A model generated the notes under the pieces. That model was not told the DNA's origin, made no database searches, and was given only the letters and a program-made list of their open reading frames with translations. Below, piece after piece: positions 6,653 through 62,098 of a DNA stretch of 64,000 nt (position 1 is its first letter; each line of letters begins with the position of its first letter). Source of the stretch: a virus (lineage: Duplodnaviria > Caudoviricetes); the IMG/VR virus record IMGVR_UViG_3300033070_001349, positions 64,001 through 128,000 of that record. One strand, 5' to 3'. Position numbers and translations under genes: made by a program.

Positions 6653-7348
6653 ATGAACCCTACCAACGCGGGGCGGCGCGTCGTGGACGCCGTTGCCCTC
6701 CTCACGTCCGACGACCCCGAGGCCACGGCTGGGCGGGTGGACGTGGTCCTCAAGGCCTTCGAGATCGCCCCCGACACGTTCCGCCTCGGGGCCTCTCCCC
6801 ACCCGGACTCGAAGCGGGTCGACGCCATCCTCACCAAGCTGTTTCAGGACGGCACCCTCGACCGCCCTTCCGAGGGCCGCTACCGGCTAGGACCCGGCGA
6901 GCGGGCGCGCGCGGCGCGCGAAGCGGCCGAGGTCGGGAGCCATGTGACTCCGGCGCCCGAACCTGACGCCACTGAGCCCGTCACTGAGCCCGCCCTGACC
7001 GCCACTGAGCCCATCCCCGAGCTCGCCCCGGCGGTGGCCCCGCCGAGGACCCTGAGCGCCGCGGAGCGAACCCGCCTGGACCGCATGGTGGCCGCCAGGG
7101 CGCGCTTCGGGGCCCGCCACACCACCCGCATCGCGACCGCCGACGTGCGCGACTTCTGGGGGACCCCGTTCCCCTCTACAGCCCTTCTCGACGAGACCGA
7201 GACCCTCCTCGCGGTAGCCCGCGCCGCCGGGTACGACGCCTGGGAGCTCTCCCTCCTCGCGGTCCACGTCGGCGCCCTCCGGCGATACCTCCACCCGCAG
7301 ACCGCGGCGACCGTCGCCGTAGTTGACAACCCGACCGCCATCTACTAG
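6653..7348 (+). CDS. Hypothetical protein, possible N-terminal winged helix
   Basis: AFEIAPDTFRLG..HPDSKRV...GTLDRPSEGRYRL. Confidence 0.55.
   Translation: MNPTNAGRRVVDAVALLTSDDPEATAGRVDVVLKAFEIAPDTFRLGASPHPDSKRVDAILTKLFQDGTLDRPSEGRYRLGPGERARAAREAAEVGSHVTPAPEPDATEPVTEPALTATEPIPELAPAVAPPRTLSAAERTRLDRMVAARARFGARHTTRIATADVRDFWGTPFPSTALLDETETLLAVARAAGYDAWELSLLAVHVGALRRYLHPQTAATVAVVDNPTAIY
6936..6951. promoter_or_regulatory. 16-bp quasi-palindrome copy 1 GGAGCCATGTGACTCC
   Basis: One of 10 dispersed copies. Confidence 0.7.
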
Positions 7349-7351
7349 GTT
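7323..7351 (+). promoter_or_regulatory. Promoter TTGACA-N17-TAGGTT
   Basis: Seen directly. Confidence 0.65.
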
Positions 7352-7410
7352 GCGAGGGCGATCGGCGGTGAATGAGCCGCCACACACCTCGCACCCGGAG
7401 CACAACCACC

Positions 7411-7911
7411 ATGCACACCGCCGAGCAACCCGCGACCGACTCCGCCAACGCGGCCGACCCCGTCGAGGTCCTCCAGACCGACCCGATGCCCGTCGACCCC
7501 GGGCCCATGCCCGAGCCGCCGCCCGAGCCTTCGACCCACCCGCGCACCCTCCGGCGCGCGCGCCGCGTCTCCCTCCAGACCGACCTCGCGGCGGTCATCC
7601 GCAAGGCCCTGCGCGCCGCGGGCATCCCGGCGACCCTCGACGCGATGGAGGACGTGGCCGTGGTCCTCGTCCGGCTCGGGACGGGCGTGGCGATGGACGC
7701 GGGCTTCCCCCCGGCCCGCGTGGGCGAGCTCATCAACGAGGGGGTCAACAAGGAGCTCAACCGCACGGGCGGCAACGGCGCTGTGAGCACGAAGCCCGTC
7801 TCCTACGAGGCCCCCCTCGCCGGGGCGTGGGACGAGCCCCAGGCGCCCGCCGAGAAGGTCGACCCGTCGCCCGCGACGCCCGACGACGCGGCCCCGACCC
7901 CCTCCTTCTGA
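7411..7911 (+). CDS. Hypothetical protein
   Basis: GGAG RBS, GC3-rich ORF. Confidence 0.6.
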   Translation: MHTAEQPATDSANAADPVEVLQTDPMPVDPGPMPEPPPEPSTHPRTLRRARRVSLQTDLAAVIRKALRAAGIPATLDAMEDVAVVLVRLGTGVAMDAGFPPARVGELINEGVNKELNRTGGNGAVSTKPVSYEAPLAGAWDEPQAPAEKVDPSPATPDDAAPTPSF

Positions 7912-7953
7912 ACCCCTCCCCCCGCGCCGCGAGCCCGTGGTAGACCCCGGGCC

Positions 7954-8154
7954 ATGAGCGCCCCCCGCACCCTCCTCGACACGAAGCTCCACCCGCTCCT
8001 TCCGCCCCGCGGGACCCAGGAGATGGCCCAGGCCTACCTCGACGCTCTGGCCGAGGACAACTGGCGATTTCTCTACATCACCCCCACGGGCCTCGCCTTC
8101 TTCCAAGAGACGGAGCCGCACGCCCCCCACGGCCCGAAAGTTGACGGCGGCTAA
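7954..8154 (+). CDS. Hypothetical protein
   Basis: Short GC3-rich ORF in gene run. Confidence 0.55.
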   Translation: MSAPRTLLDTKLHPLLPPRGTQEMAQAYLDALAEDNWRFLYITPTGLAFFQETEPHAPHGPKVDGG

Positions 8155-8168
8155 TCATGTGCTAGATT
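8141..8168 (+). promoter_or_regulatory. Promoter TTGACG-N16-TAGATT, leaderless to ATG 8176
   Basis: Seen directly. Confidence 0.7.
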
Positions 8169-8175
8169 GCCCGCC

Positions 8176-8400
8176 ATGAACCACGCACCTACGATGGATG
8201 AGGTCACACGTCGAGTTCGAGAGGCCCTCGCGCCGTTCGAGGGGAAGGACCCTCCGCGCGCGGTCGTGGCTTCCGAGGTCGCGGGGGCCCCGAACGACCT
8301 CTGGCCCAAGACCCCGCCGATAGCGTGCGAAGTCACGGCGGACCCTGAGGACCCCGCGCGAATCCCCCTCCACCTCTCGCGGCCCCGGACGGCGGCGTGA
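8176..8400 (+). CDS. Hypothetical protein
   Basis: ATG 7 nt after -10 box. Confidence 0.55.
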   Translation: MNHAPTMDEVTRRVREALAPFEGKDPPRAVVASEVAGAPNDLWPKTPPIACEVTADPEDPARIPLHLSRPRTAA

Positions 8401-9179
8401 GGGGGCCCCTCGTCGAGTGGGTCGAGCGGTGCCCGTCCGTGGCCGACGACGGCTCGAAGCGGTGGGAGTTCTACTCCGTCACCGGGGCCGTCCTCCGGGT
8501 GCACTCCACCCGCCGATGGAACCCCCTGTACCTGACGACGGCCCCGCCTGACACCCGGAACGACCCCCGCTCCTTCTCCCTCGACCTCCGAGCCCTCGGC
8601 GGCCCCGTTCTGACCGACTACTGTCGCTCGGTCCTCACCGCGAAGCGCAAGGCGGCAGCCCTCCTCCTCGAACGGCTCCCTGGGCTGTGGCCCAAACAGT
8701 GGGAGGCCCGCTACGAGGTGCTCCGGTGGGAGCCGGGGGCGTGGAACCCCCGAAAGGGCGTTTGGACCCCCGTCGCCCACACCCTCGACGCCGCCTCGGC
8801 CTTGGAGGTCGTCCTCACGGGCGGCGCCTTGTACGGCCTCCGCCGCGCCGGGGAGACTTCGCGCTACGCCTGGACGACCCAGGTCCCCCCTCGGTGGGTC
8901 GAGGGGGTCCCCTCCGTGGCGGTGACGCCCCTCGAACCCACCCGAGCCTTCGAGCTCTACACCACCGCCCGCCCGGAGCCCTACCGCTTCCTCGCGACGA
9001 AGGCCGACGGGACCGCCGGATGGTCGGTCGCGTCCCTCGACTTCTCGCCTCCCTACGACACCCTCTACAGATCCACCTTCACCGTCGAACCCCGGGCGGG
9101 GGTCGCCTACCTCGCGGGCAGCGCCACCCTCCCCGTCGAGCGGATCGTCGAAGTCACCTACCCCAAGGACCCCCCATGA
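8397..9179 (+). CDS. Hypothetical protein
   Basis: Overlapping start/stop coupling at both ends. Confidence 0.6.
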   Translation: MRGPLVEWVERCPSVADDGSKRWEFYSVTGAVLRVHSTRRWNPLYLTTAPPDTRNDPRSFSLDLRALGGPVLTDYCRSVLTAKRKAAALLLERLPGLWPKQWEARYEVLRWEPGAWNPRKGVWTPVAHTLDAASALEVVLTGGALYGLRRAGETSRYAWTTQVPPRWVEGVPSVAVTPLEPTRAFELYTTARPEPYRFLATKADGTAGWSVASLDFSPPYDTLYRSTFTVEPRAGVAYLAGSATLPVERIVEVTYPKDPP

Positions 9180-10651
9180 GCCTCGCCCCCGTCGCCCCCC
9201 CGATCGTCCTCCTCTGCGGCCCCAAGGGGTCCGGCAAGAGCACCCTGGCCGCCTCCCTCGTCCTCTGCGGCTGGTTCGAGCTCGCCTTCGCCGACCCCCT
9301 CAAGCGCTTCGTGAAGCAGCTCATCCCGACCCTCCCCGTGGACGTGCTCGCAGGGCCCTCGGCGGGCCGGGATGCCTACAGGGTCGACCTGACCCCGCTC
9401 CGCGGGAACGTGCGGCGCATGGTCATCGCGATCGACCACCTCTTCGAGTACGAGCTCGGGGAGACGGGGGTGGAGCTCGGGGCGGTCCTCCTCGCGAACC
9501 AGCTCGACCGGGTCCTCGCCTTCGAGCCCGACACGATCACCCTCCGACGGCTCCTCCAGGTGGTCGGCACCGAGTGGGGGCAGGAGAAGGTCGACCGGCT
9601 CCTCTGGGTCAAGACCACGGAGCGCAAGGTGTTGGCCCTCCGCGACGGGGGGCCCGAGATGGCGAAGCGCCTCTACCCGGTCAACGTATCGGCCCTCAAC
9701 GGCCGCCCACCGAAGGGCATCGTCCTCTCCGACGGCCGCTTCGATCACGAGTACGAGGCCGCCCGGTCCTGGGGAGCGACCCTCGTCCTCTGCGACCCCG
9801 GCGCCCGTCCCATCGACCTCCGCCAGAGCCACGTCTCCGAGCCCGAGGTCGCCGCCCTTCGCGCCAAGACCGACTGCACCGCCAACACCGCGGGCCCGGA
9901 GTACGGCGGCCCTCCGCCGGGCGAGCTCGCTCACCTCTTCGGGGTCCTGTGGGAGGCCGAAGACCGGAAGCGCATCGCGGCCGAGGAGCACCTGACGGGC
10001 GTCTACAAGCCCTCGGCCTTCGGCGAGCAGCTCATCGGGCGGGTGTGCAACAAGTGCGGGAGCTTCTACAAGCTCGGGCACGAGCCCCCGAAGGGCCGAT
10101 GCTGCGGCGCCCCGTGCATGAACTCGGGCTGCAACAACCCCGTCAACAACCCCTGGTCGGTATGCCACGGGTGCTCCCCCATCCCGAGCGCGAGGCACGA
10201 GGCGGAGACCTTCCTCAAGGCCACGGCCCTCGCCCACGACGCCGAGGCCGCCTCCGCTCCGGTCTACATCCCCTCGCAACTTCGTCAGGGCGCCCTGGCG
10301 AACGAGGGTTCCATGGGCGAGGGCTTCTACGCCTCCCTCGCCGAGCTCCGGGACTACTGCGCCGACCTCAAGGCACCCCTCCCCCCTTACGTCTACCCCT
10401 GCGACCAGAAGCGCCCGGAGGACGAGGTGGACGCCGACCGCTACATCGAAGAGGCCCTCGCGGAGCATCACTCGGAGGCCGCCGCCCACATCGGGCCGGG
10501 CCAGCGCGAGGTCCTCGGGGACTACCTCAAGGACTGGTGGAAGCAGACCGGCGTCTGCACCTGGACCCCGGACCGGAGCCGCGTCTTCATCCTCGACCCC
10601 GAGCGGTGCCCGAAGCCTGCGAGCCATGTGGCTCCCGCGGGGGCCCCGTGA
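9176..10651 (+). CDS. Deoxynucleoside monophosphate kinase (T4 gp1-like) with Cys-rich C-terminal extension
   Basis: LCGPKGSGKST P-loop, FADPLK, RRLLQVVGTEWG, SDGRFDHE, HVSE. Confidence 0.85.
   Translation: MSLAPVAPPIVLLCGPKGSGKSTLAASLVLCGWFELAFADPLKRFVKQLIPTLPVDVLAGPSAGRDAYRVDLTPLRGNVRRMVIAIDHLFEYELGETGVELGAVLLANQLDRVLAFEPDTITLRRLLQVVGTEWGQEKVDRLLWVKTTERKVLALRDGGPEMAKRLYPVNVSALNGRPPKGIVLSDGRFDHEYEAARSWGATLVLCDPGARPIDLRQSHVSEPEVAALRAKTDCTANTAGPEYGGPPPGELAHLFGVLWEAEDRKRIAAEEHLTGVYKPSAFGEQLIGRVCNKCGSFYKLGHEPPKGRCCGAPCMNSGCNNPVNNPWSVCHGCSPIPSARHEAETFLKATALAHDAEAASAPVYIPSQLRQGALANEGSMGEGFYASLAELRDYCADLKAPLPPYVYPCDQKRPEDEVDADRYIEEALAEHHSEAAAHIGPGQREVLGDYLKDWWKQTGVCTWTPDRSRVFILDPERCPKPASHVAPAGAP
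10620..10635. promoter_or_regulatory. 16-bp quasi-palindrome copy 2 CGAGCCATGTGGCTCC
   Basis: Dispersed motif. Confidence 0.7.
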
Positions 10652-10923: not shown

Positions 10924-10950
10924 GCCGCCCGAGGGGTTATCGTAGACCCC

Positions 10951-11394: not shown

Positions 11395-11426
11395 ACCCCG
11401 TCCGTCCCATGCGCTAGGTTGCGGCC

Positions 11427-14882: not shown

Positions 14883-14898
14883 GGAGCCACATGGCTCC
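14883..14898. promoter_or_regulatory. 16-bp quasi-palindrome copy 3 GGAGCCACATGGCTCC (leader of initiator gene)
   Basis: Dispersed motif, intergenic. Confidence 0.75.
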
Positions 14899-14930: not shown

Positions 14931-16385
14931 ATGCAGACCGAGCGCGGCGAGTTCTACATCCGGCACGACTACAACTTCTACGACTCGGGCATCCTCGCGG
15001 CCCTTCCACACGCGGCCGTCCTCGTCTACGACCTCCTCCGGCGCTTCGTGTGGCGCTCGGACAGCCCCCAGAAGCCCCTCGTGGCCGCGCTCCGGGCGGA
15101 GGGCTACGTGGTGTCCTCGGCGAGCCAATCGACCCTCGCGGCGCTCCTCGGATACGAACGGCCCAAGACGGTATCGGACAACCTCCTCGCGCTGAAGCGA
15201 CTCGGGTGGGTCCGCACGGTCCAGAGCCGCGGCGGGGAGACCGCCTACGTCCTCGGGGAGATGACCCGGGACGGGATGGGGAACCGCTACGAGGGCTTCT
15301 ACGCCGATGCCATGGGGCGGCTCCTCCTCGACGACCTCGAAGCGGAGGCCAAGAGCAAGCACGGCCCCAGCGCCTCCCTCTACGCCCTCCCCGCCGCCGA
15401 ACGGGCATCCCTCTGTCGGGCGTTCCTTCTCCCGATCCTCGACGACAAGGGGGAGGTGTCGGTCGAATACCGCGGAGAGAACTCGATCGCCCCTGCCACC
15501 CCCCCTGGCGGAAATCCGCCACCCCCCCTGGCGGAAATCCGCCACCCCCCCTGGCGGAAATCCGCCAACGGGAACAGGGAGGGTACTTCGTACCCTCCCC
15601 CTAATGCTGAGAACCCCCTAAACCCCTCGGGTTCTCGGGGGTCTTCGACCCCCTCCGAGCCCGGGGGAGGGGTCCCTCCGGGACAGACCACCTCCCCCTC
15701 CTCGGGGGAGTCCGATCCCTCCGGGGGTCTCCCGGTTCCCCCCGTAACCCCTCCGGCTCGTCTCGCTCCGCTCGACGAGAGCGAAGAGGAGGCCGCCGAT
15801 GGTGCGAAGGGAGGCACGCCTCCCACTGGCGCCGCGACCGCGAGCCGCCGCAAGCCCACGATCCTCCCGGACCTCACCCGGAAGCGGCAGGAGTTCGCGG
15901 AGGCGTCCAAGGCCGCCGCCACGCATCACCTCCGGGAGGACTCGAAGGCGGAGCGGATGACGGCGTCCCGAAAGGGCCAGGGCTCCGACAGCAAGAAAGT
16001 CACGGCCGACATCGCCAAGCTGGAGGGGGTGTGGATCGAGAAGCTCTCCGAGCTCTTCCCCGGCGTGGTGGTCGGGGGGTGGTCGGTCGCGGACAAGGTC
16101 CAGATCAAGCAACTCCTCGGGCGCTACGCCGTCGAGGTCCTCTCCGACACCCTCGCCTACGTCCTCCGGGAGTGGGGGGCCATCAACACCCGGATTTTCA
16201 AGGGGACCGCGAAGGTGCCCTCCGTGCCGCTCATCGCCCGGATGCACACCACGTTCGTCACGGAGGCCCAGCTCCACGCCCGGAGTGCCGCGGCCAAGGA
16301 AGAGATCGACCGCTGGGTCGCCGAGCACCCCTACGAGGCGGTCCCCGAGGCGATGATCCATCGGTGGAAGGGAACGAGCGCATGA
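14931..16385 (+). CDS. Putative replication initiator (N-terminal wHTH, internal iterons)
   Basis: AVLVYDLL...SQSTLAALLG..RPKTVSDNLLALKRLGWV wHTH; internal tandem repeats; followed by loader and helicase. Confidence 0.75.
   Translation: MQTERGEFYIRHDYNFYDSGILAALPHAAVLVYDLLRRFVWRSDSPQKPLVAALRAEGYVVSSASQSTLAALLGYERPKTVSDNLLALKRLGWVRTVQSRGGETAYVLGEMTRDGMGNRYEGFYADAMGRLLLDDLEAEAKSKHGPSASLYALPAAERASLCRAFLLPILDDKGEVSVEYRGENSIAPATPPGGNPPPPLAEIRHPPWRKSANGNREGTSYPPPNAENPLNPSGSRGSSTPSEPGGGVPPGQTTSPSSGESDPSGGLPVPPVTPPARLAPLDESEEEAADGAKGGTPPTGAATASRRKPTILPDLTRKRQEFAEASKAAATHHLREDSKAERMTASRKGQGSDSKKVTADIAKLEGVWIEKLSELFPGVVVGGWSVADKVQIKQLLGRYAVEVLSDTLAYVLREWGAINTRIFKGTAKVPSVPLIARMHTTFVTEAQLHARSAAAKEEIDRWVAEHPYEAVPEAMIHRWKGTSA
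15495..15567 (+). repeat. Three exact 23-bp direct repeats GCCACCCCCCCTGGCGGAAATCC (putative origin iterons)
   Basis: Units 15495-15517, 15518-15540, 15541-15563 plus GCCA; the array forms three TGGCGGA-AA-TCCGCCA palindromes, each spanning a unit boundary. Confidence 0.85.
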
Positions 16386-17038
16386 AGCCCGTCGTCAAGC
16401 CACGCCCCCTGGAACGGGGCGACCTCGAACGCATGTGCCTCCCCGAGTCCCTCTGGCGGGTCCGGGCGGACGGCCTCCCCGGGCCCGCCGTGGCGGCCCT
16501 GCGGTCGTACGCCGCCAAGGTCGACGCCCTGGCCCCCAAGGGGGTCGGGATCGTCTTCCTCGGCCCCCAGGGGGTCGGCAAGACCTCCCTGGCGTCCATC
16601 CTCCTCCGCGAGCTCCGGCCCCGGGGCTACTCGGGGCTCTTCCTCACGGCGTGGGACTTCAGGGAGTTCACCCGCGGCAAGGTGCCCTTCGACGGGGAGC
16701 AGCTCTACGGCGAGCGTGCCAGGACGGTCGACCTCCTCGTCCTCGACAACCTCACGGAGCTCGACGGGCAGGACGTGGCCTGGGGGAAGCGCCCGATCGA
16801 GGAGCTCCTCTCCTCCAGGGCCTCCCTCGGGCGGCCCACCATCGTCACCACCCGGATCGGGAGCTCGGAGCTTGCCTCGGGGGCGTGGCGAGGACTCCTC
16901 CCCCTCGGCCGCCTCGTCCCGGTCCCCGTGGTGGGCCCTGACCTGTCCGCCGTGACCCTCAAGCTCGCGGGGGAGGCCCTCCTCGGCCCCCCGCCGAAAT
17001 CCACGATGCCCCCCACCTCCCAGTCGGTGAAGCGATGA
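16382..17038 (+). CDS. DnaC/IstB-like AAA+ helicase loader
   Basis: GPQGVGKT Walker A, LLVLDNL Walker B, R..LGRPTIVTT. Confidence 0.85.
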   Translation: MKPVVKPRPLERGDLERMCLPESLWRVRADGLPGPAVAALRSYAAKVDALAPKGVGIVFLGPQGVGKTSLASILLRELRPRGYSGLFLTAWDFREFTRGKVPFDGEQLYGERARTVDLLVLDNLTELDGQDVAWGKRPIEELLSSRASLGRPTIVTTRIGSSELASGAWRGLLPLGRLVPVPVVGPDLSAVTLKLAGEALLGPPPKSTMPPTSQSVKR

Positions 17039-18516
17039 GCGACAACCCCTTCGGCGTCGAGGACGACTCGGACCTCGACGACGGCCCCAACCCCTTCGGG
17101 GCTTCTCCGGGCCCGTCCGCACTCGCCGGGGTCGACCTCGACCTCGCCGTGGTGCTCTCGATCCTCCGCTCCAAGAACCCCCGCGCGAGCTACCTCGAAG
17201 CCGTGGCCCGCGGGCTCAACTCGGACCGTCTGGAGGGGGACGGCCGGGCCATCTTCCTCTTCGCGGAGTCGCACCTGAAGGAGTACGGGTCTCTCCCCGG
17301 GCGGGACCAGATCGCCGCCACGCTCGGGCTCGTGACCCCCGAGGACCCGCCCGAGGGGACCCCCTCCTTCTGGGTCGCCGAGGCCCTCTCCCGGGACCTC
17401 CACCGCGAGATGGCCGGTCGCCTCTCCGGGTGGGCCGGGGACCTCGAACACCGCAACCCCCGCAAGGCCTTCGAGGAGATGAGGGCCTGGGTTCGGGAGC
17501 GAGACCGGGACGCGAGCCCCATCCTCCTCTCGCCGTTCTCGGACCACCTCGCCGAGGTCAAGGCCCGCTACCTCCGCCGGAAGGCGGGCGAGCGTGGCAT
17601 CCAGACCCCGTGGCCGTCGGTCAACAAGCTCACCTACGGGATCTACCCCGAACAGGTGTGGCTCGTCGTCGCCCGCTCCGGCGTCGGCAAGACGTGGATG
17701 GCCCTGGCGGTCGCGATAGGCGCGTGGCTCGCCGGGTATCGCGTGCTCGTGGTGACCACGGAGATGGGCCTCATCGAGATCGTGCACCGGGCCGTGGCCG
17801 CCCGCCTCCAGCTCCCCTACGGGAAGTTCAACGAAGGCTCCCTGCCGGAGCACATCGAGACGCGCTTCTTCGCCGAGGTCGACGCCGCCTTCGAGGGCGG
17901 GGAGATCATGGGCGTGGGGGGCGACTTCGACTTCTCGATCGACGCCTACGAGGCCGCCGTCGACAAGGCGCGGCCCTCTGACCCGAAGAAGAAGCTCCTC
18001 GTGGTCGGCGACGGGGCCTACCTCCTCCAGGCGCCCGGGAAGAGCCCGGTGGAGAAGGCCGCCGCGGTCTACAACCAGATCAAGCGGATCGGGAAGCGCT
18101 ACGGGGCGGGCCAGCTCCTCACCACGCAGTACAACCGCGAGGTCAAGGCCGACGACGCCAAGACCCAGTCCCAGGAGCGCATCGCGCAGACCGACTCCGC
18201 GGTGTGGGTCTCGTCCGTCGTGGCGGGCCTCGTTCAGACCAAGGACATGCGCCGGGACCGGGTGGCCCAGCTCAAGCTCCTCAAGAACCGCGAGGGCCCG
18301 CTCGGGGAGACCCTCACGGTCAACTTCGACTTCGAGGCCATGGACTTCACCGAGCAGACCCCCGACGCCGACGCCCCCGGGGACTTCGACCCGAAGCTCC
18401 ATCCCGCGAGCCATGTGGCTCCGGGGGTGTCGGGGCCCTCGGCCCCGATCGACGGCGACCCCTTCGCGGCCTTCGCCGCCGCGCCGATCGACCCGGTCGG
18501 GGACGTGCCCTTCTGA
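17035..18516 (+). CDS. dnaB: DnaB-like replicative helicase
   Basis: GIQTPW..VN..TYG, ARSGVGKT, TTEM, DGAYL, QYNRE, LLKNREG. Confidence 0.9.
   Translation: MSDNPFGVEDDSDLDDGPNPFGASPGPSALAGVDLDLAVVLSILRSKNPRASYLEAVARGLNSDRLEGDGRAIFLFAESHLKEYGSLPGRDQIAATLGLVTPEDPPEGTPSFWVAEALSRDLHREMAGRLSGWAGDLEHRNPRKAFEEMRAWVRERDRDASPILLSPFSDHLAEVKARYLRRKAGERGIQTPWPSVNKLTYGIYPEQVWLVVARSGVGKTWMALAVAIGAWLAGYRVLVVTTEMGLIEIVHRAVAARLQLPYGKFNEGSLPEHIETRFFAEVDAAFEGGEIMGVGGDFDFSIDAYEAAVDKARPSDPKKKLLVVGDGAYLLQAPGKSPVEKAAAVYNQIKRIGKRYGAGQLLTTQYNREVKADDAKTQSQERIAQTDSAVWVSSVVAGLVQTKDMRRDRVAQLKLLKNREGPLGETLTVNFDFEAMDFTEQTPDADAPGDFDPKLHPASHVAPGVSGPSAPIDGDPFAAFAAAPIDPVGDVPF
18407..18422. promoter_or_regulatory. 16-bp quasi-palindrome copy 4 CGAGCCATGTGGCTCC
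   Basis: Dispersed motif in DnaB tail. Confidence 0.7.
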
Positions 18517-21654: not shown

Positions 21655-21670
21655 CGAGTCATGTGACTCC
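21655..21670. promoter_or_regulatory. 16-bp quasi-palindrome copy 5 CGAGTCATGTGACTCC
   Basis: Dispersed motif, intergenic. Confidence 0.75.
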
Positions 21671-47301: not shown

Positions 47302-47317
47302 GGAGCCACATGACTCC
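47302..47317. promoter_or_regulatory. 16-bp quasi-palindrome copy 8 GGAGCCACATGACTCC
   Basis: Dispersed motif, intergenic between polA and groES. Confidence 0.75.
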
Positions 47318-48589: not shown

Positions 48590-51500
48590 TCGACATTCGC
48601 GGGGGCCGCGCCCGCTCGATCCGAGAGCAGTCAGAGGTCGAAGCCGCCCTCCGCGAGGAGCTCAAGGGCCTCACCCCGGAGGAGCTCGCCGTCCTCGACC
48701 TCCTCTTGAAGGAGCAGGGCAAGGCGCCCCTCCCCGGGGTGGACCCGGGCCTCTCGGTCCTGCGGGCCCTCGAACGCACGGAGTGGAAGGTCCCGCCGGT
48801 CGACATGCGGACCTTCATCTACGACCCCTACTACCTCGGGGAGTCGTGCGGCGAGCTCTACCCCTCCCACTACGCGGACCTCTCTGAGCTCTTCGACCGC
48901 GGGGGCTACCACGAGGCCCTGTGGACGGGCGCGATCGGATGCCTGCGGGGAGACACCCCCGTCCACGACCCGGTCACGGGCATCACCGCCTCCGTGGAGG
49001 CCCGCTACCAGGAGGGCCGTCCCTTCCACGTCTGGTCCCGCTCGGACGCCGGGCCGGTGATCGCCGAGGCGTGGGCCCCCCTGCGCTACCCCGAGGCCCC
49101 GATGTTCCGGGTCACCCTCGACACCGGGGAGTCGTGCGTCGTCACCCCCGAGCATCGGTTCTGGGACGGTTTCAGGTGGGTGACCGCTTCCGAGGTCCGC
49201 GAACGCCTGCGAGGATCCGAGCTTGTCCTGCTTCCGTCCAGTTCGGACATCGTCCCTTCAACTCGTGCGCGAGGTGCTCTCCGTTCGACGCGAAGAGTTC
49301 CAGGTTCTCCGGGCGGTTGTCGGCCGGGTCTCCGTTCCGATGGTGGACGACCTCCTTCGGATCGAGAAGACGCCCGAGGGTGGTCTCCATCACGAGGCGA
49401 TGCTCTCGGACGTACCCGTGGCTATCCGCGTTCGGATGGTCAGGGCGAAGGAGGAGCACATAGCCGGACTTGTCGAGCATCCGCCCCCCCTTCCACGACC
49501 AGTTCCTCCCTTCTCTCGGGCCCCGACGCCGAGGCTCTTCTCCTAGCGCTCGAAGGGCGGCGGCCACCCGGTTCCGACTCGATCCGACGAGTGCGGCGAC
49601 TTCTGGCAGCGTGTGCCCTTCTCGGTACAGCTCTAGGGCTCGGGCCCGACGCTCATCCGTCCATCGCGCCCCAAGGTTGCAGGGCTTCTCGGGCGTCCAT
49701 CGGGCCGTCATGGGGTGAGCTCTACCCTGACGGGAGCGAATGGACAAGGACGGCGGCTCGTGTCGTGTCCGTGGAAACAGAGGCCCCCGAGCCCTACTTC
49801 GACTTCCACGTCCCGATCCACAACAACTACGCCGCCGCGGGCCTATGGCACCACAACACCGGCAAGAGCTTCTCCGCCTCCGTCGGCGTGTGCCGCGTCC
49901 TCTACGAAATCTCGTGCATGAGGGACCCGCACGGGGCCTTCCACATCGCCCGGCACTCGCCGATCCACCTCGTGTGCCTCTCCGTCACCGAGGACCTCGC
50001 GATCAAGGTCGCCTTCGACTACATCATCGAGAAGATCCAGCTCTCCCCCTACTTCCGCGAGAACTTCCCCTACCGCCCAGGGAAGAAGGAGTTTCTCTTC
50101 CCGAACAAGGTGTCCCTCGCGGCCCGCGCGACCACCGACACCTCGGCCCTCGGGCTCAACGTCATCTCGGTCTTCCTCGACGAGTCCGACTTCATCAAGA
50201 AGCCCGGCAAGGCGAAGCTCGCGGCCGGGGAGAAGGACACCGCCGAGCGCATCTACGCGAAGCTCAAGCGCCGCGTGAAGAGCCGCTTCCAGCGCAACGG
50301 CCGCCTCCCCGGGATGCTCTTCATCGTCTCGTCCAAGCGCCGCACCGACGACTTCTCCGCCCGGCACATCGAGAAGAGCCGCCACGACCCCACCGTCTTC
50401 GTCTCGGACAAGTCCCTGTGGGACGTGAAGCCCGAGTCCTACTCGAAGGAGCGCTTCCACGTCTTCGTCGGGAACGAGAGCCTCCCCTCGAAGATCCTAG
50501 AGCCCGCCGAGGTCGAGACCTACCGGGCCGTCGCAGAGGGCAAGGATACGTGCGTGGTCTTGGAGGTCCCCGAGGACTTCCGCCCTGACTTCGAGCGCGA
50601 GCTCGAAGAGGCGATCCGGGACATCGCCGGGGTCGCCACGGTCTCGATCGCCCCCTTCATTCAGCGCCGCGAGCGGATCCAGGCGGCGGCCGACTACGGC
50701 GACGCGAACGGCCTCCTCCACCCGTTCAGCACCGTCGAGTACGTTCCGGGGTCCGGCGCTGAGTTCCTGTGGGGCATCCTCGCCGAGACCTACTCGCACC
50801 CCCTCTCCGAGGGTGGCTACGAGACCAAGTGGCGCCCGCGGCTCAACCCGTGGGCCGCACGCCACGTCCACATCGACCCGTCGCTCACCGGGGACTCGAC
50901 CGGCCTCGCGATCGGCCACGTCGCCGGGTACAAGGAGGTCCTCCGCCGGGACTCCAACCACAGGATCTACGCCGAGAAGGCCCCGGTCATCGTCATCGAC
51001 CTGATCCTGCGGATCGTCCCGCCCCTAGGGGACGAGATCATCCTCGGGGACGTGCGGGCCCTCGTCTACCAGTGGGCCGAGCACGGGTTCCGCCTCGCGA
51101 AGATCACCATGGACTCCTTCCAGAGCGCGGACGGACTCCAGCAGATGGCCCAGAAGGGGTACAGCGCCGAGGTCTACTCGGTCGACCGGACCCCCACCGC
51201 CTACGAGATGCTCAAGACGGCCCTCTACGAGGGGCGCCTCATCTACTACGGCTACCCCAAGCTCCTCGAAGAGCTCAGGAAGCTCGAAAAGAACCACGTC
51301 ACGCACAAGGTCGACCACCCGCCCATGGGCTCCAAGGACTGCGCGGACGCCGTGGCGGCCCTGGTGGCGACCCTGTCGGGCGTGATCGCCGACGTGGCGA
51401 CAGACCCCCTACCCATGCTCCGCGGTCTCTCGTATTCTCCCGAGCTCGTGAGCCCCTCCGCCGCCTCCACCCCCGCCCAGGCCGCCCAGGTCGCCCACGC

Positions 51501-51594
51501 TCCAGTCTCCGACCGGGTGGCCTCGGCCCCTCTCGGGATGGTGGCCCCGGAGCCACATGACTCCAACCCCTACGGCGCGGAGTACGAGCCCTGA
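48586..51594 (+). CDS. terL: Terminase large subunit with intein
   Basis: After splicing Walker A GAIG|TGKS; VFLDE Walker B; HIDPS..GD.TG, DSFQS, HPPMGSKDCADA nuclease. Confidence 0.92.
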   Translation: MIDIRGGRARSIREQSEVEAALREELKGLTPEELAVLDLLLKEQGKAPLPGVDPGLSVLRALERTEWKVPPVDMRTFIYDPYYLGESCGELYPSHYADLSELFDRGGYHEALWTGAIGCLRGDTPVHDPVTGITASVEARYQEGRPFHVWSRSDAGPVIAEAWAPLRYPEAPMFRVTLDTGESCVVTPEHRFWDGFRWVTASEVRERLRGSELVLLPSSSDIVPSTRARGALRSTRRVPGSPGGCRPGLRSDGGRPPSDREDARGWSPSRGDALGRTRGYPRSDGQGEGGAHSRTCRASAPPSTTSSSLLSGPDAEALLLALEGRRPPGSDSIRRVRRLLAACALLGTALGLGPDAHPSIAPQGCRASRASIGPSWGELYPDGSEWTRTAARVVSVETEAPEPYFDFHVPIHNNYAAAGLWHHNTGKSFSASVGVCRVLYEISCMRDPHGAFHIARHSPIHLVCLSVTEDLAIKVAFDYIIEKIQLSPYFRENFPYRPGKKEFLFPNKVSLAARATTDTSALGLNVISVFLDESDFIKKPGKAKLAAGEKDTAERIYAKLKRRVKSRFQRNGRLPGMLFIVSSKRRTDDFSARHIEKSRHDPTVFVSDKSLWDVKPESYSKERFHVFVGNESLPSKILEPAEVETYRAVAEGKDTCVVLEVPEDFRPDFERELEEAIRDIAGVATVSIAPFIQRRERIQAAADYGDANGLLHPFSTVEYVPGSGAEFLWGILAETYSHPLSEGGYETKWRPRLNPWAARHVHIDPSLTGDSTGLAIGHVAGYKEVLRRDSNHRIYAEKAPVIVIDLILRIVPPLGDEIILGDVRALVYQWAEHGFRLAKITMDSFQSADGLQQMAQKGYSAEVYSVDRTPTAYEMLKTALYEGRLIYYGYPKLLEELRKLEKNHVTHKVDHPPMGSKDCADAVAALVATLSGVIADVATDPLPMLRGLSYSPELVSPSAASTPAQAAQVAHAPVSDRVASAPLGMVAPEPHDSNPYGAEYEP
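48940..49857 (+). mobile_element. Intein (306 aa) in TerL Walker A; central region is the antisense of an HNH gene
   Basis: IG|CLRGDT...VTPEHRFW...YFDFHVP..NNY....WHHN|T. Confidence 0.9.
49172..49711 (-). CDS. HNH homing endonuclease with N-terminal HTH, antisense inside the TerL intein
   Basis: LELYREG.TL.EVA..VG.S HTH; WKGG....GY....PDHP.A...GYVREHRLVME..LGR.L...EVVHHRNGD..DNRPENL. Confidence 0.9.
   Translation of the reverse strand: MTARWTPEKPCNLGARWTDERRARALELYREGHTLPEVAALVGSSRNRVAAALRALGEEPRRRGPREGRNWSWKGGRMLDKSGYVLLLRPDHPNADSHGYVREHRLVMETTLGRLLDPKEVVHHRNGDPADNRPENLELFASNGEHLAHELKGRCPNWTEAGQARILAGVRGPRKRSPT
51549..51564. promoter_or_regulatory. 16-bp quasi-palindrome copy 9 GGAGCCACATGACTCC
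   Basis: Dispersed motif at terL end. Confidence 0.7.
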
Positions 51595-51598: not shown

Positions 51599-54385
51599 AT
51601 GGGGATCCTCGACGGCCTCACCTCCGTAGCCCGCCGGGTCCGGCAGTGGGCCACCTCGACCAGGACCCGCCAAGCCCGCGAGCTTGCCGTGGGCGGCACT
51701 GGGGCCTCCGCCCTCGGCACCGGCTACGACCTCCTCTCGTCCTACGGGGCGGACAACCTCTCCTCGTACCTCCAGCTCGACCACGGCCTGTTGGAGCGGT
51801 ACAGCGACTATGAGGGGATGGACGAGTACCCCCTGGTCTCGTGTCTAGCGGGCGATTCGCTCGTTTTCACGCTCGAAGAGGGATGGGTTCCGATCCGCAC
51901 GCTGGCCGATCGCGGTCTGGAGTTCCACGTCCTCGCCTACGACAAGGCGACCCGGTCCCTCGTCCCGGCGAAGGCATCGGACGCTCGCTGCACGGGGCCA
52001 GAAGGGCACGCGAAGCCCATGGTTCGGGTCGTCACGGACGATGGCCGAACCATCACCTGTACGTCGGACCACCTCTTCCTCCTCAAGGACGAGGTCTGGC
52101 GTACCGCGGGGGACCTCCAACCCGGAGACCGGCTCATGCCCGGGGTTCTGCGCCAGAGGCACCTCGCCGTATGCTCGCAGACCTACTGGGAGGTGCACCA
52201 GCCCCAGTCGGACTCCACCTACCGGGCCTCGGATGGCAAGCGGTGGGTGTGGCTCCACCGGCTCGTGGCGGAGACGCTCCTCGGGGCGGTCCCTTCGGCG
52301 GGAGAGGTCGTCCACCACATCGACGAGAACACGCACAACAACGCCCCGAGCAACCTGAGCATCGAGGACAACGCCTCCCACGCCCGGATCCACCTCGCAG
52401 GCATCGACAACACGCGCTTCTTCCCGGAGTGGACGGCGGAGCGCCGCGCCCAGGCCGCCGAGCGGATGCGGGGCAACGACTTCGCCCTCGGCAAGAAGTT
52501 CTCGCCCGAGGTCAAGCAGCGGTTGTCGGAGGCCCGGAAGGGCCGCCCCAAGTCCGAAGCGCACCGTCGGGCCATCGGTCTCGCGCAGCCCTCTCGCGTC
52601 GCTCTGCCCCGCGAGGTGGTCGAGGGAGCCCTCCGGGAAGGGGGCACCGTAGCGCGTGCCGCTCGCCTTCTCGGGGTATCGTGGAGCACCATGAATCGTA
52701 GGGCCGAGGAGTTCGACCTCCTCTCGTCCGAGGCGAACCATCGGGTACTTCGGGTGGAGGTTCTCCCCTCGCGCGAGCCCGTCTACGACCTCACGGTGCC
52801 GGGCTTCCACAACTTCGTCTGCAACGGCGTGGTCGTCCACAACAGCGCCCTCGACGTGTACGCCGACGACGCGACGCAGACCGACCAGCAGACGGGGAAG
52901 GCGATCTGGGCCAAGTCCAAGGACCACCGCGTCGAGGAGATCCTGAACGACCTCCTCCACAAGGTGCTCCACATCGAGGACGAGCGCTGGGAGCTCGCCC
53001 GCACGCTCTGCAAGCACGGCAACGACTACGAGGAGCCCATCATCACGAACGAGGGCGTGGTGGCCCTCAACTTCCTCCCGGCCCCGACGATGCGCCGCCT
53101 CGAAGGCTCCAGGGGGGAGCTCTACGGCTACGTTCAGGACTTCCGGGGGAAGGTCGGGTACACGGTCCAAGAGTGGCAGCAGCTCATGGAGGCGCGCGAC
53201 ACCAAGCCGCGCCGCCCCCCTTTCGACCCAAGGGACCCGAACCTCGAACCTCCGGGGGAGGACGAGTACGTCGCGCCCTTCGAGGACTGGGAGGTGGTGC
53301 ACTTCCGGCTCCGGGGCAGGCACCGCCGGTCGGTCTACGGCCACGCGGTTCTGGAGTCGGCGCGGTTCATCTACCGGCGGCTCATGCTCTTGGAGGACGC
53401 GGCCCTCATCTTCCGCCTCCAGCGGGCCCCCGAGAAGCTCGCCTTCTACGTGGACGTGGGTCAGATGCCCTCCACCGAGGCTCTCGCGCACGTCCGCCGT
53501 GTGCGCAACGACCACAAGAAAAAGAAGTTCATCAACCCCACGACGGGCCAGCTCGCGACCCGGATAGAGGCCTTCTCCCCCGACGCCGACTACTGGGTCC
53601 CCTCCCGCGACGGCAAGGACTCCACCCGGATCGAGACGGTCTCCTCCCCCTCGTGGCAGCACATGGAGGACATCGAATACTTCCGCTCGATCCTCTTCGC
53701 CGCCATGAAGATCCCCAAGGCGTACCTCGGCGGTGACGAGGGCGTGGTGAACTCCGTCCTCTCCTCGCAGGACGTTCGCTTCGCCCGCACGATCCTCCGG
53801 GTGCAACAGGCCCTCAGGCAGGGCCTCCAGGCGATCTGCCGCATCCACCTCGCGGCCCTCGGGATCGACCCGAACCGGGTCGAGTTCGAGATCGAGATGA
53901 CCATTCCGAGCTCGATCTTCGAGCTCGCCCAGCTCGAAGCCCGGAACGCTCGCGCCGACCTCGCGGGCCGGATGCGCGAGTTCGTCGACATGCGCACGAT
54001 CCTTCAGGACGTGTTCGGGCTCTCGGACGAGGAGACCCTCCGGGTGGTGCAGGGCAAGCACCAGGACGCGGTCAGGGACGCCTTCACGCAGGCCAAGGTC
54101 CAATCCATCATGGGCGGTCCCGGCGGGCCCCGCGCTCCCGGGGGTGCCCCTGGCGGGCCCGAGGCCGCGCCCATCCCGCTCACGCGCCGCCGGGCCGGGC
54201 TCCCGAACCTCATGCCGAACGACCTGGAGAAGGAGCTCTACGCCTCCCCCACCTCCAGCCGCCGGTCCCGGCAGTTCGAGAAGAAGCTCGACGAGGTCCT
54301 CAAGGGCGACCAGCTCCTCGCGGCCCGGCTCCAAGAGGTGAAGGAGCTCGTTCAGATGGTCTCCCAGTTCCGCCGTGCCTCGTGA
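51599..54385 (+). CDS. Portal protein (T4 gp20-like) with HNH intein
   Basis: Y..MD.YP.VS|SALDVYADDAT; LLEDAALIFRLQRAPE..FYVDVG.MP; DYWVP.R.G..TRIET; DIEYF..LF.A.KIP; DVRFARTI.R.Q. Confidence 0.92.
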   Translation: MGILDGLTSVARRVRQWATSTRTRQARELAVGGTGASALGTGYDLLSSYGADNLSSYLQLDHGLLERYSDYEGMDEYPLVSCLAGDSLVFTLEEGWVPIRTLADRGLEFHVLAYDKATRSLVPAKASDARCTGPEGHAKPMVRVVTDDGRTITCTSDHLFLLKDEVWRTAGDLQPGDRLMPGVLRQRHLAVCSQTYWEVHQPQSDSTYRASDGKRWVWLHRLVAETLLGAVPSAGEVVHHIDENTHNNAPSNLSIEDNASHARIHLAGIDNTRFFPEWTAERRAQAAERMRGNDFALGKKFSPEVKQRLSEARKGRPKSEAHRRAIGLAQPSRVALPREVVEGALREGGTVARAARLLGVSWSTMNRRAEEFDLLSSEANHRVLRVEVLPSREPVYDLTVPGFHNFVCNGVVVHNSALDVYADDATQTDQQTGKAIWAKSKDHRVEEILNDLLHKVLHIEDERWELARTLCKHGNDYEEPIITNEGVVALNFLPAPTMRRLEGSRGELYGYVQDFRGKVGYTVQEWQQLMEARDTKPRRPPFDPRDPNLEPPGEDEYVAPFEDWEVVHFRLRGRHRRSVYGHAVLESARFIYRRLMLLEDAALIFRLQRAPEKLAFYVDVGQMPSTEALAHVRRVRNDHKKKKFINPTTGQLATRIEAFSPDADYWVPSRDGKDSTRIETVSSPSWQHMEDIEYFRSILFAAMKIPKAYLGGDEGVVNSVLSSQDVRFARTILRVQQALRQGLQAICRIHLAALGIDPNRVEFEIEMTIPSSIFELAQLEARNARADLAGRMREFVDMRTILQDVFGLSDEETLRVVQGKHQDAVRDAFTQAKVQSIMGGPGGPRAPGGAPGGPEAAPIPLTRRRAGLPNLMPNDLEKELYASPTSSRRSRQFEKKLDEVLKGDQLLAARLQEVKELVQMVSQFRRAS
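51842..52843 (+). mobile_element. Intein (334 aa) with in-frame HNH, NUMOD3-like repeats and HTH in the portal
   Basis: VS|CLAGDS...CTSDH...WLHRLVA...VVHHIDENTHNN..SNL...VYDLTV..FHNF...VVHN|S. Confidence 0.92.
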
Positions 54386-55125: not shown

Positions 55126-55138
55126 AGAGAGACACGCC

Positions 55139-57704: not shown

Positions 57705-57740
57705 CGAAACCACCACCCCCTACTAGGGAGACCGACGACG

Positions 57741-59249: not shown

Positions 59250-59303
59250 GTCCCGGCTCGTTATGTCCTGGCGTAGCTGCCCGAAGCAGGCTACGTCAGG
59301 GCC

Positions 59304-60377: not shown

Positions 60378-60380
60378 GCC

Positions 60381-60911: not shown

Positions 60912-60925
60912 CGCGGGCCTCCTAT

Positions 60926-61132
60926 TCACGCCCGGACCCGGCGCTGGGCCTCCTCGACCGCGCAGAGGCACCGGAAGGCGTCGCCCGGGGCGAGCTCGGC
61001 CTTGGCCGCCGCGTACCCCATGTGGACGCTCTCGACCTCGCGGGGGGTCTTGGCGGCCTGGGCGTCGCGGAGGATGGTGGCGGCGATCCGGCGAGAGGAC
61101 TTGGCGCTGGGGCGGGAGGACTTGCTGCTCAT
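60926..61132 (-). CDS. Small hypothetical protein (leaderless)
   Basis: ATG 6 nt after TAGATT -10 box. Confidence 0.6.
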   Translation of the reverse strand: MSSKSSRPSAKSSRRIAATILRDAQAAKTPREVESVHMGYAAAKAELAPGDAFRCLCAVEEAQRRVRA

Positions 61133-61138
61133 GCACCT

Positions 61139-61166
61139 AATCTAGCGCATGGATTCTGATAGTCAA
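61139..61166 (-). promoter_or_regulatory. Promoter TTGACT-N16-TAGATT
   Basis: Seen directly on - strand. Confidence 0.75.
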
Positions 61167-61179
61167 GCCCCTACGATCG

Positions 61180-61220
61180 AAAAGAGACAGGGGCGGTGCC
61201 GTTTCCAGTACCGCCCCTGT
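61180..61220 (-). terminator. Rho-independent terminator
   Basis: ACAGGGGCGGTAC-loop-GCACCGCCCCTGT stem followed by CTCTTTT on - strand. Confidence 0.65.
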
Positions 61221-61355
61221 TGGATGGTAGCCCCATCGCGAGTCGCGAGGGGTACTCTAGCGCGAGACGCCCCCTAGGCCACCCCCTAAAGAGAAGGGCG
61301 CCGAGCCTCTTCCGAAGCCCGGCGCCCTCCGCGGCTTCCGCCGCCGTGATCCGCC
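61180..61355 (-). ncRNA. Candidate structured small RNA (~175 nt)
   Basis: Bounded by promoter 61361-61388 and terminator; four or five hairpins, two with GGAA tetraloops. Confidence 0.5.
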
Positions 61356-61360
61356 ATCAC

Positions 61361-61388
61361 AACCTAGCACCAGCCCCGACCTCGTCAA
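61361..61388 (-). promoter_or_regulatory. Promoter TTGACG-N16-TAGGTT
   Basis: Seen directly on - strand. Confidence 0.65.
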
Positions 61389-61420
61389 CCCGATAGCGGG
61401 TGTGGTAGGGTCTCGGCCAC

Positions 61421-62098
61421 ATGGGACAACTCGACGGCCTCGACGAACTCCTGGGACAGCCTCGGACGGTCTATCGCGGGCCCTCACACGTTCACGCCGG
61501 GCCTTCGTCGAGGGTGCCCCTCGGCCCCCCCGCTCCAGCCCGAGACCCCCGCCGCCCGCCGCCGCGCCCGGCCCCCACGGAGTCCCCGTACGGCGGGGAC
61601 TACCTCGGGCTCACCGGCCTCGACCAGACCCTGACCCGGGGGTACCGGCCGGAGGACGCGATCGACTACGAGGACCCCCCGCCCGAGGACTCCCCGGAGT
61701 CGATCCCACTGGTGGCCCGCGCCTCCGCGGGCAGGCCCCTGGCCGCGCCCCCCACCGCGCCCCGGAGTCATGTGGCTCCGCCCCCTCCGGCTTTCTCGCC
61801 CCTGCGGGCGGCACCGTCGCCTGTCTCCTCCTCGGAGCGAGGCCGGGTCCTCCGGGGGATCGCGCACCACCTCCGCGAGGCCTCGGTCCTCCTCGACCAG
61901 CTAGCGGCGCTCGAAGTCCCGGTCGCCGAGGCCCCCGTCCTGACCCCGCCGGATTCGGCCCCGGACCCCTTCCGCGAGGCCCCGGTCCCCATGACCCGCG
62001 CCCCCACGGCCGCCGCTCCTACGGCCGCCGAGGATGCGCCCGAGGACGACTCGATCCCCGTGGAAGTGGACTCGACGGAGGCTCCCGCCCTCGGGTAG
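61421..62098 (+). CDS. Hypothetical Pro-rich protein
   Basis: GC3-rich ORF. Confidence 0.55.
   Translation: MGQLDGLDELLGQPRTVYRGPSHVHAGPSSRVPLGPPAPARDPRRPPPRPAPTESPYGGDYLGLTGLDQTLTRGYRPEDAIDYEDPPPEDSPESIPLVARASAGRPLAAPPTAPRSHVAPPPPAFSPLRAAPSPVSSSERGRVLRGIAHHLREASVLLDQLAALEVPVAEAPVLTPPDSAPDPFREAPVPMTRAPTAAAPTAAEDAPEDDSIPVEVDSTEAPALG
61764..61779. promoter_or_regulatory. 16-bp quasi-palindrome copy 10 GGAGTCATGTGGCTCC
   Basis: Dispersed motif. Confidence 0.7.

Follow-up and report, generated by a model that had tools for sequence, protein, structure and literature searches.

What could maintain a short palindrome at intervals of a few kilobases, within genes as well as between them, along the genome of an uncultured tailed phage? 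The question is raised by a 64,000-nucleotide window, bases 64001-128000 of the 148,482-bp IMG/VR phage contig IMGVR_UViG_3300033070_001349 (Caudoviricetes), which is estimated by CheckV to be 78% complete, has a G+C content of 70.7% and carries its genes nearly all on one strand. An original prediction, made from the letters of the window, had described ten dispersed copies of a 16-bp parS-like palindrome and had proposed that a dimeric phage protein binds them for partition, for genome compaction or protection, or for global repression. We find that the copies belong to an evenly spaced lattice that runs along the whole contig, and that lattices of the same kind, each with its own palindrome, are present in several cultured phages that also encode an orphan ParB-like protein. 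The copies may be double-stranded DNA docking sites for a phage-encoded symmetric dimer, with the ParB-like protein as its reader or partner, a reading that we regard as evenly poised between acceptance and doubt.

An evenly spaced palindrome

All ten predicted copies were found, at positions 6936, 10620, 14883, 18407, 21655, 28670, 33575, 47302, 51549 and 61764 (coordinates are those of the window unless called genome coordinates). The pattern that describes them, SGAGYCAYRTGRCTCC, has exactly ten matches in the window, and when the suggested comparison with shuffled sequence was made, none of 100 dinucleotide shuffles produced a copy (0.00 expected). A search that allowed two mismatches added one weak copy, at 36293. 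The copies in the window are listed here (as palindromes, they are entered without a strand):

6936-6951: palindrome copy GGAGCCATGTGACTCC, in a linker of ORF 6653-7348, read as SHVTP
10620-10635: palindrome copy, in the final 10 codons of the dNMP-kinase-like gene 9176-10651
14883-14898: palindrome copy, intergenic, 33 bp upstream of the putative initiator gene 14931-16385
18407-18422: palindrome copy, in the DnaB-like helicase 17035-18516, within its unaligned C-terminal tail
21655-21670: palindrome copy, intergenic, between 20705-21616 and the RyR-domain gene 21719-22111
28670-28685: palindrome copy, in the exonuclease-like gene 28296-29222, read as CESCGS (CxxC motif)
33575-33590: palindrome copy, in the giant ORF 32908-43665, within its Pro/Glu-rich N-terminal region
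36293-36308: weak palindrome copy CGAGCCCTGTGGCTCC with 2 mismatches, in the giant ORF, a doubtful member of the set
47302-47317: palindrome copy, intergenic, between polA (44170-47289) and the Cpn10/groES-like gene 47351-47869
51549-51564: palindrome copy, in the large terminase's C-terminal tail and 35 bp ahead of the portal gene; the ATG within it opens a 942-codon frame
61764-61779: palindrome copy, in the weakly coding open reading frame (ORF) 61514-62098, read as SHVAP

Over the whole 148-kb contig there are 27 good copies of the 14-bp core GAGYCAYRTGRCTC, in which ten of the 14 positions are invariant and whose flanks are mostly G and C. Neighbouring copies lie 1.8-13.7 kb apart, which amounts to about one copy per 5 kb, and they are spaced far more evenly than chance would have them: the coefficient of variation (CV) of the gaps is 0.52, against 0.97 under random placement (P=5e-5), and the smallest gap (1.8 kb) is also beyond chance (P=5e-5, i.e. 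one in 20,000 random placements).

With genes called in this analysis by codon bias (coding share 93.5%), 12 of the 27 copies are mostly intergenic and thus crowd into the 6.5% of the DNA that is non-coding, an enrichment of about 7-fold; eight intergenic copies begin 0-13 bp past a stop codon. The genic copies are genuinely coding, since the frame with high G+C at third codon positions runs on across them. They use all three frames (read as SHV[AT]P, E[SP]xxS and GAMWL) and mostly occupy C-terminal tails or linkers that do not align with homologues, such as the tails of the helicase, the terminase and the kinase and the Pro/Glu-rich start of the giant ORF, while the longest gaps of the lattice fall on long conserved genes. 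Taken together, the even spacing, the preference for intergenic DNA and the placement in tails and linkers suggest that a copy is wanted every few kilobases and is put where proteins tolerate it. The earlier argument that the seven coding copies of the window, being read in different frames and mostly within linkers or tails, reflect selection on the DNA rather than on a peptide is thereby supported.

Two copies, at window 28670-28685 and at genome coordinate 9856, read E-S-C-G-S inside CxxC-type cysteine motifs, and at both of them the DNA site and a probable zinc-binding motif occupy the same bases. The segment 1468-4313 bears no palindrome copy and lies inside an 8.2-kb gap of the lattice. 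Its G+C is lower (0.67), it includes non-coding gaps 340-500 bp long as well as the few ORFs of the reverse strand, and it may have been inserted recently.

Two probable half-sites on duplex DNA

What kind of molecule would read such a site? The variable arm positions, 5 and 12, are CC in eight of the 27 copies, TT in five and mixed in 14, as independent choice would give. In the sense-strand RNA, a C.A mismatch would arise in seven of the 27, including the commonest intergenic form, GGAGCCACATGACTCC, and no U-tract was found downstream of the motif. A structured RNA or a cruciform is therefore unlikely, and the independence of the arms fits best with two half-sites that are read separately, by a dimeric protein on duplex DNA, so that the sequence-specific dimer of the original prediction is still the best reading. 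We consider it very probable that the copies are protein-binding sites.

The centre of the palindrome is CA/TG in 26 of the 27 copies, TA in one copy outside the window and CG in none. It is thus true of all copies that the core is never CACGTG, as had been noted, but this has a simpler cause than the preference of a protein: CACGTG is missing from the whole contig (0 found, 48.8 expected), so that a CG-centred copy is impossible here whatever the reader prefers. Of the 36 6-bp palindromes that could be tested, 16 are nearly absent from the contig. Counts found and expected are, for instance, CACGTG 0/49, GACGTC 0/61, CTCGAG 1/160, GCCGGC 2/123, ACCGGT 0/45, TCCGGA 1/57 and TCATGA 0/24, and such losses are a strong sign of restriction avoidance. 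We do not accept restriction avoidance as the general cause of CA/TG centres, because in DLP5, one of the cultured phages described below, the centre is CA/TG in 34 of 35 copies even though the depletion of ATCGAT is mild (21 found, 41 expected). An asymmetric centre can thus be a property of the reader itself, and in the present phage restriction avoidance and reader preference are both possible causes.

On the coding strand, 12 copies have a CA centre and 14 a TG centre, and copies are present in both orientations. CA prevails at intergenic copies (8 of 10) and TG at genic ones (12 of 16; P=0.014), a skew that we attribute to coding constraints, because His-Val is easier to accommodate than His-Met and because the ATG serves as a start in four cases. 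When the mixed copies are turned so that the centre reads CA, 12 have the arrangement GAGCCA-CA-TGACTC and 2 the reverse; within a half-site, arm and centre base tend to pair up, C with C and T with T. We also considered the motif as a start-codon signal and rejected it, since a long frame begins with the (A/G)TG of positions 9-11 at no more than 4 intergenic sites, whereas in the other copies this triplet opens frames of 4-46 codons or stands in the wrong frame.

Most promoters have no copy

The contig has 29 strong sigma70-type promoters of the form TTGACN-N16/17-TAGRTT, with ATGCGC before TAGRTT. All are intergenic and lie at genome coordinates 603-88956 (in the window, up to about 24990), with none in the structural-gene region, and most stand 34-35 bp ahead of a start codon, a distance at which many early and middle transcripts are probably leaderless. 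Only three or four of the 29 have an adjoining palindrome, always upstream of the -35 element, and eight copies of the lattice lie in the promoter-free late region. With so few promoters bearing a copy, the sites are not classical operators, which speaks against the proposed global repression, at least by promoter occlusion; nor do most promoters have a site at a fixed short distance, as is typical of the KorB network. Promoter-plus-stem-loop cassettes occur in T4-type phages; this arrangement was discarded as an explanation, as only 4 copies precede a promoter.

Lattices with other palindromes

Is the lattice peculiar to this phage? A megablast search with 20 kb of it against cultured phages gave no match, and the commonest exact 16-mer was found in IMG/VR in six contigs, with one copy each. 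Relatives traced by the capsid protein are only 60-67% identical in it, and in whole-genome scans these lack the motif of the present phage and bear palindromes of their own: GCGACCAWTGGTCGC in 10 copies in one T4-like relative (G001), CGTCCAWTGGACG in about 7 copies in another (G009), and RCGCAAGCGYTTGCGY in 16-26 copies, where about 1 is expected, in four more (G002-G005; CV 0.63-1.07). In G002, G004 and G005 (loci L076-L085 and L170-L188) we noted a second, A/T-rich palindrome, GAAAACTC(T)WAGAGTTTTC, whose 10-18 copies are limited to one region of small genes, 16-24 kb long; they probably represent terminators or early-region cassettes and have to be kept apart from the GC-rich palindrome that is found genome-wide.

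A tblastn search with the ParB-like protein found homologues in 22 of 50,697 phage records. Those in RcTiptonus, RcZahn, DLP5, JP1, RHph_TM16 and PG28 are 25-35% identical to it, and in all six the genes follow the order (glycosyltransferase), ParB-like gene, small gene, large terminase; in RHph_TM16 the gene between the ParB-like and terminase genes is a homologue of window 47888-48589. The cultured phages with lattices are these:

RcTiptonus: TGCAATCGATTGCA, 48 copies, CV 0.48
DLP5: TGCAAT(CA/TG)ATTGCA, 35 copies, CV 0.47
JP1: TTGCAAACGTTTGCAA, 47 copies, CV 0.49
KarBoss: TGCAATTAAnTGCA, 43 copies, CV 0.57
RHph_TM16: GTGCAAYNNRTTGCAC, 25 copies, CV 0.56
RcZahn: TGCAATNNATTGCA type, 27 copies, CV 0.64
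PG28: TGCAATTAATTGCA type, 35 copies, CV 0.37

Spacing is even in all seven (P<=0.005), and the palindromes, 14-16 bp long, are of a TGCAA type; by crude gene calls their copies are enriched between genes, yet are often genic. The same uniform script re-finds the published repeat of phage Corndog (37 copies), and with it palindromes did not rise above shuffle level in T4, T5, SPO1 and Bxz1, in which the ParB-like gene was not detected. The only proteins common to the present phage and all four cultured genomes first tested are a helicase, RecA, the ParB-like protein, PolA and the large terminase. Read from the sites themselves, the GCAA half-site is as far from the dyad centre in G002-G005 as it is in the proteobacterial phages, and such a shared register in phages of different host classes argues for a reader that the phages encode. 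Palindromes go unmentioned in the RcF and DLP3/DLP5 papers. By crude calls, the genes of the present phage, G001, RcTiptonus, DLP5, JP1, RHph_TM16 and KarBoss are nearly all on one strand.

A metagenome scan gave no ParB-like homologue closer than 39%; closer ones (53-66%) are in other assemblies. In 20-kb windows around the ParB-like genes of 40 other contigs there was mostly no repeated palindrome, a comparison that would be blind even to the present lattice and is therefore given no weight.

The ParB-like protein and the other candidate readers

Three candidate readers had been named, namely the ParB-like protein, a double-MerR protein and the winged helix-turn-helix (HTH) product of ORF 6653-7348. 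The genes that matter most here are the following:

31866-32777, + strand: orphan ParB-like gene (303 aa), with a ParB N-terminal NTPase fold, GxxRxxA, a helical middle and a conserved C-terminal part; the best candidate for the reader of the lattice or a partner of it
47888-48589, + strand: likely small terminase (233 aa), directly upstream of the large terminase, assigned by position only
48586-51594, + strand: large terminase (1002-codon frame), common to all cultured lattice phages
24991-25821, + strand: MerR-like gene, without a counterpart in most lattice phages

Among the three, only the ParB-like gene co-occurs with arrays in other phages. The MerR-like protein is kept in the T4-like relatives and has one weak match in the cultured lattice phages, and the product of ORF 6653-7348 has neither a family match nor a homologue, so that these two candidates are not supported.

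The N-terminal domain of the ParB-like protein superposes in VIA-align on KorB, Noc and ParB with Z 10.2-12.7 and rmsd 1.5-2.3 A over 93-126 residues, KorB being the top structural match (Z 12.7). Foldseek gives E about 1e-6 and a profile search against Helicobacter pylori ParB gives E 5e-7, while the match to Pfam ParB_N, the sole one in the contig, is below the curated cut-off (21.3 against 26.3 bits). The GxxRxxA motif (G104, R107, A110) is invariant in 10 homologues and is kept in 19 ParB-like sequences, those of cultured phages included, with the first Arg of GERR replaced by W, H or F. Modelling predicts a homodimer with a score of 0.48, against 0.00 for the best of 3 controls, with agreement between runs on at least 49% of contacts and a partner pLDDT of at least 58; the mark for a dimer is reached by 20 of 30 proteins solved as one-chain pairs and by 1 of 23 solved as single chains. 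The predicted contacts involve residues 41-142 and 240-292, i.e. the N-terminal and C-terminal parts, and this modelled dimer may owe its pass to likeness to solved ParB dimers. Several components of a ParB-type clamp are thus present, namely an NTPase fold, GxxRxxA, a predicted homodimer and, on the same replicon, 27 palindromes as putative binding sites.

How would such a protein use the lattice? A phage-encoded symmetric dimer would dock on double-stranded DNA at each copy, each subunit reading one GAGYCA half-site across a flexible CA/TG centre. Selection would then maintain a copy roughly every 5 kb, preferably in intergenic gaps and otherwise in tolerant linkers and tails, and the outcome would be a lattice over the whole chromosome, not a collection of gene-specific switches. 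If it behaves as ParB, KorB and Noc do, the ParB-like protein might act as a nucleotide-gated dimeric clamp that is loaded at the sites and spreads from there over the intervening DNA, and the purpose might be to label replicated phage DNA, or to give it order, for packaging, compaction or protection. Since the gene adjoins the small and large terminase genes in distant phages and there is no ParA, these roles appear likelier than partition or repression. No ParA-type Walker motif (KGGxxK[ST] type) was found among the called proteins of the 148-kb, 78%-complete contig, which also speaks against the partition role first proposed.

Several observations weigh against assigning the lattice to the ParB-like protein. 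No HTH was recovered in it by profile, Pfam, NCBIfam, fold or wide structure searches: the profile alignment to ParB reaches the first HTH helix only, the TIGR00180 match ends at profile position 122 of 186, no Pfam HTH family matches the C-terminal half in seven homologues, and this half, when modelled alone, is of low confidence (pLDDT 64) and resembles only generic helical bundles (Z<=6.8). The co-occurrence that the original prediction had suggested as a check holds in the seven cultured phages but fails in the Arthrobacter phages KellEzio and DanielleIgnace, which carry a ParB-like homologue and no lattice. The lattice genomes represent perhaps three or four independent lineages, and the association is uncorrected for relatedness; moreover, the copy number is low in G001 and G009, at about 7-10. 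There are phage ParB-like proteins with no DNA-binding domain that activate thymine dioxygenases (PMC13229309), which cautions against assuming that every ParB-like protein reads DNA. On balance, we hold it about equally probable that the ParB-like protein is the reader, or an obligate partner of the reader, and that it is neither, whereas its clamp-like spreading, argued by analogy, is a tentative suggestion.

A co-variation of the putative recognition helix with site type was sought among the 19 ParB-like sequences and discarded, as no residue pattern beyond relatedness appeared. In DanielleIgnace (loci L248-L251), TGTTTCACGGGAAACA/C occurs four times; it is close to a canonical parS but altered in one half.

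Alternative explanations

If the ParB-like protein is not the reader, one should consider another phage protein, for example a fast-evolving small HTH protein or the small terminase, with the ParB-like protein as an accessory or unrelated. The lack of a detectable HTH and the two Arthrobacter phages without a lattice both favour such a reader, as do the gene order of distant phages, in which the ParB-like gene has as its neighbour the presumed gene for the small terminase, a DNA-binding protein (47888-48589 being its homologue), and the similar repeat of Corndog, which has no detectable homologue of this ParB-like protein. By tblastn, however, no other protein of DNA-binding type is common to the present phage and the cultured lattice phages. 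A small terminase is found in every tailed phage, whereas lattices are rare, and small terminases usually bind one pac region rather than genome-wide palindromes. We regard a different phage-encoded reader as unlikely, albeit to be taken seriously. The copies might instead be targets of site-specific modification or nicking by the ParB-like protein, whose fold is called that of a 'nuclease', together with neighbouring enzymes and perhaps at packaging. A glycosyltransferase gene adjoins the ParB-like gene in most of the cultured phages with a homologue, a methyltransferase gene does so in DanielleIgnace, phage DNA-modification dioxygenases most often have glycosyltransferase, ParB and terminase genes beside them (PMC13229309), and this genome has been under extreme pressure from restriction enzymes. 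Nevertheless, neither the contig nor five cultured lattice phages gave a match to the Tet_JBP dioxygenase model (PF12851), which divergent enzymes could escape; known enzymes favour 3-base contexts over 14-bp sites; nicking both strands of a palindrome would break the genome; and beside the ParB-like gene of this phage no glycosyltransferase was seen, although no search was aimed at one. Modification or nicking thus appears improbable. Much the same, or slightly less, can be said for operators of a global repressor or transcriptional roadblock, like the stoperators of Cluster A phages or the repeats of the phiC31 repressor. Copies are indeed enriched between genes, and four stand 3-7 bp upstream of a -35 element; but none overlaps a -35, a -10 or a start, and the few promoters with a copy (3-4 of 29), the eight copies in the late region, which lacks such promoters, and the genic position of over half of the copies all fit poorly with operators. 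Stoperators, moreover, are asymmetric and follow the direction of transcription (PMC4351075), whereas the present site is symmetric and found in both orientations; neither a repressor nor an integrase was identified.

The 7-2-7 layout of the palindrome resembles sopC and parS, and one may therefore ask whether the copies serve a plasmid prophage as centromeres, as the dispersed sites of N15 do, with the ParB-like protein as partition protein. In support of this, there are reports that DLP5, which has a lattice as well as a homologue, persists as a phagemid (PMC5834331, PMC7326821). Against it stands the absence of a ParA-type Walker A motif from the 148 kb, although a ParA gene could sit in the part that this 78%-complete contig is missing. 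Partition, furthermore, needs one or a few sites and not 27-48 at even intervals. No sign of lysogeny is seen in the RcF phages (PMC8601537), and on these grounds we judge centromeres very unlikely. Still less credit can be given to an RNA hairpin or DNA cruciform acting as terminator, processing site or translation signal, even though the motif contains a GGAG, a start codon and a CTCC, its ATG opens a long coding frame in four cases and eight intergenic copies follow a stop codon within 0-13 bp. The arms are just 6-7 bp long with a loop of 2-4 nt, positions 5 and 12 do not co-vary, C.A mismatches occur in 7 of 27 sense strands, no U-tract follows, and many copies lie deep in genes in all three frames. 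It is, finally, barely conceivable that the sites bind a host protein which the phage recruits or titrates. Their inner bases, YCAY/RTGR, match the inner bases of chromosomal parS, but the outer half-site is unlike parS, each phage lineage has a palindrome of its own, and the TGCAA type is common to phages of Rhodobacter, Stenotrophomonas, Agrobacterium, Rhizobium and Vibrio, so that the site tracks the phage lineage and not the host.

Comparison with known systems of dispersed sites

The nearest precedent for the array itself is found in the Cluster O mycobacteriophages such as Corndog, whose 17-bp dyad repeat TGTTCGGNNNCCGAACA has been on record since 2015 with neither function nor reader assigned (PMC4351075). 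That repeat has 7-bp inverted arms and more than 30 copies throughout the genome of a lytic-type phage, about a third of them genic and most not at promoters; its authors predict binding by a dimeric protein, and the phage encodes a ParB-domain protein and no ParA (PMC4351075). The present phage likewise has tens of dyad sites within the 14-17 bp range, partly genic and not tied to promoters. In Corndog, by contrast, the 37 copies are unevenly spaced (CV 0.94 against 0.52 here) and crowded towards one genome end, the arms are 3 bp apart instead of 2, and the ParB-domain protein is no detectable homologue of the present one. The lattice is thus one more example, and an unusually even one, of the kind of array that Cluster O phages first revealed. 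What is new is that arrays of this kind are present in several cultured, genetically tractable phages and are strikingly even there. Since a single orphan ParB-like gene, sited in the packaging module, accompanies the array, the question of its reader can be put to test at the bench.

As regards mechanism, the closest analogue is KorB with the 12 OB operators of the IncP plasmid RK2 (PMC11790492), in which a reader with a ParB-family NTPase fold loads and slides and in which a 13-bp palindrome occurs about once per 5 kb over the replicon, with some sites genic or far from promoters (PMC11790492). KorB differs in having a proven HTH, the partners KorA and IncC (ParA) and defined operator-promoter distances, none of which we found here, and RK2 is a plasmid, whereas the present genome is that of a virulent-type phage. 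Noc of the Bacillus chromosome and ParB with parS also share 14-16 bp palindromes read by a dimer of ParB fold; Noc sites are dispersed over the whole chromosome, and the inner core of parS is the same as that of the present motif except at the centre. Unlike what is seen here, Noc and ParB have a canonical HTH, ParB works with ParA, parS clusters near the origin and the outer half-site is different. Cluster A stoperators, too, are tens of 13-bp sites, genic as well as intergenic, bound by one phage protein, but they are asymmetric, transcription-oriented and found in temperate phages with a known repressor (PMC4351075), while the present sites are symmetric and lie in both orientations. The ParB-like activators of thymine dioxygenases resemble the present protein in being orphans with nucleotide-binding and C-terminal dimerisation domains and no obvious DNA-binding domain, and their genes are often near those for glycosyltransferase and terminase (PMC13229309); on the other hand, neither the present contig nor five cultured lattice phages yielded a Tet_JBP enzyme, and long palindromic sites are unreported there.

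A wider system is conceivable, though we would call it doubtful at present, in which a terminase-adjacent orphan ParB-like NTPase loads at lineage-specific lattices and coats or marks the entire phage chromosome. If so, phages of Stenotrophomonas, Rhodobacter, Agrobacterium, Rhizobium and Vibrio, together with uncultured T4-like phages, would have their DNA distinguished or organised for packaging, or shielded from host nucleases. We found no description of such a widespread system in the literature searched. If the ParB-like protein is the reader, viruses would be making whole-genome use of the ParB switch, which would bear on how phages discriminate between their own and host DNA and on the roles of orphan 'ParB-like nuclease' genes.

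Other genes of the window

Several gene labels were also re-examined. Those of polA and groES were confirmed and that of 'SSB' was not, while the 'initiator' label is backed by gene order, its sole support, the gene being followed by a DnaC-like loader and then by a DnaB-like helicase. Directly after the ParB-like gene comes the giant ORF of 3585 codons (32908-43665), with its Pro/Glu-rich N-terminal region; it has no Pfam match, and the relative G001 shares only the ends of the ORF. The PolA gene (44170-47289) contains a LAGLIDADG-type endonuclease segment at residues about 195-340, and the portal ORF (51599-54385, 928 aa) an HNH endonuclease segment at residues about 190-370, before the portal domain. 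Both segments are probably inteins or fused homing endonucleases.

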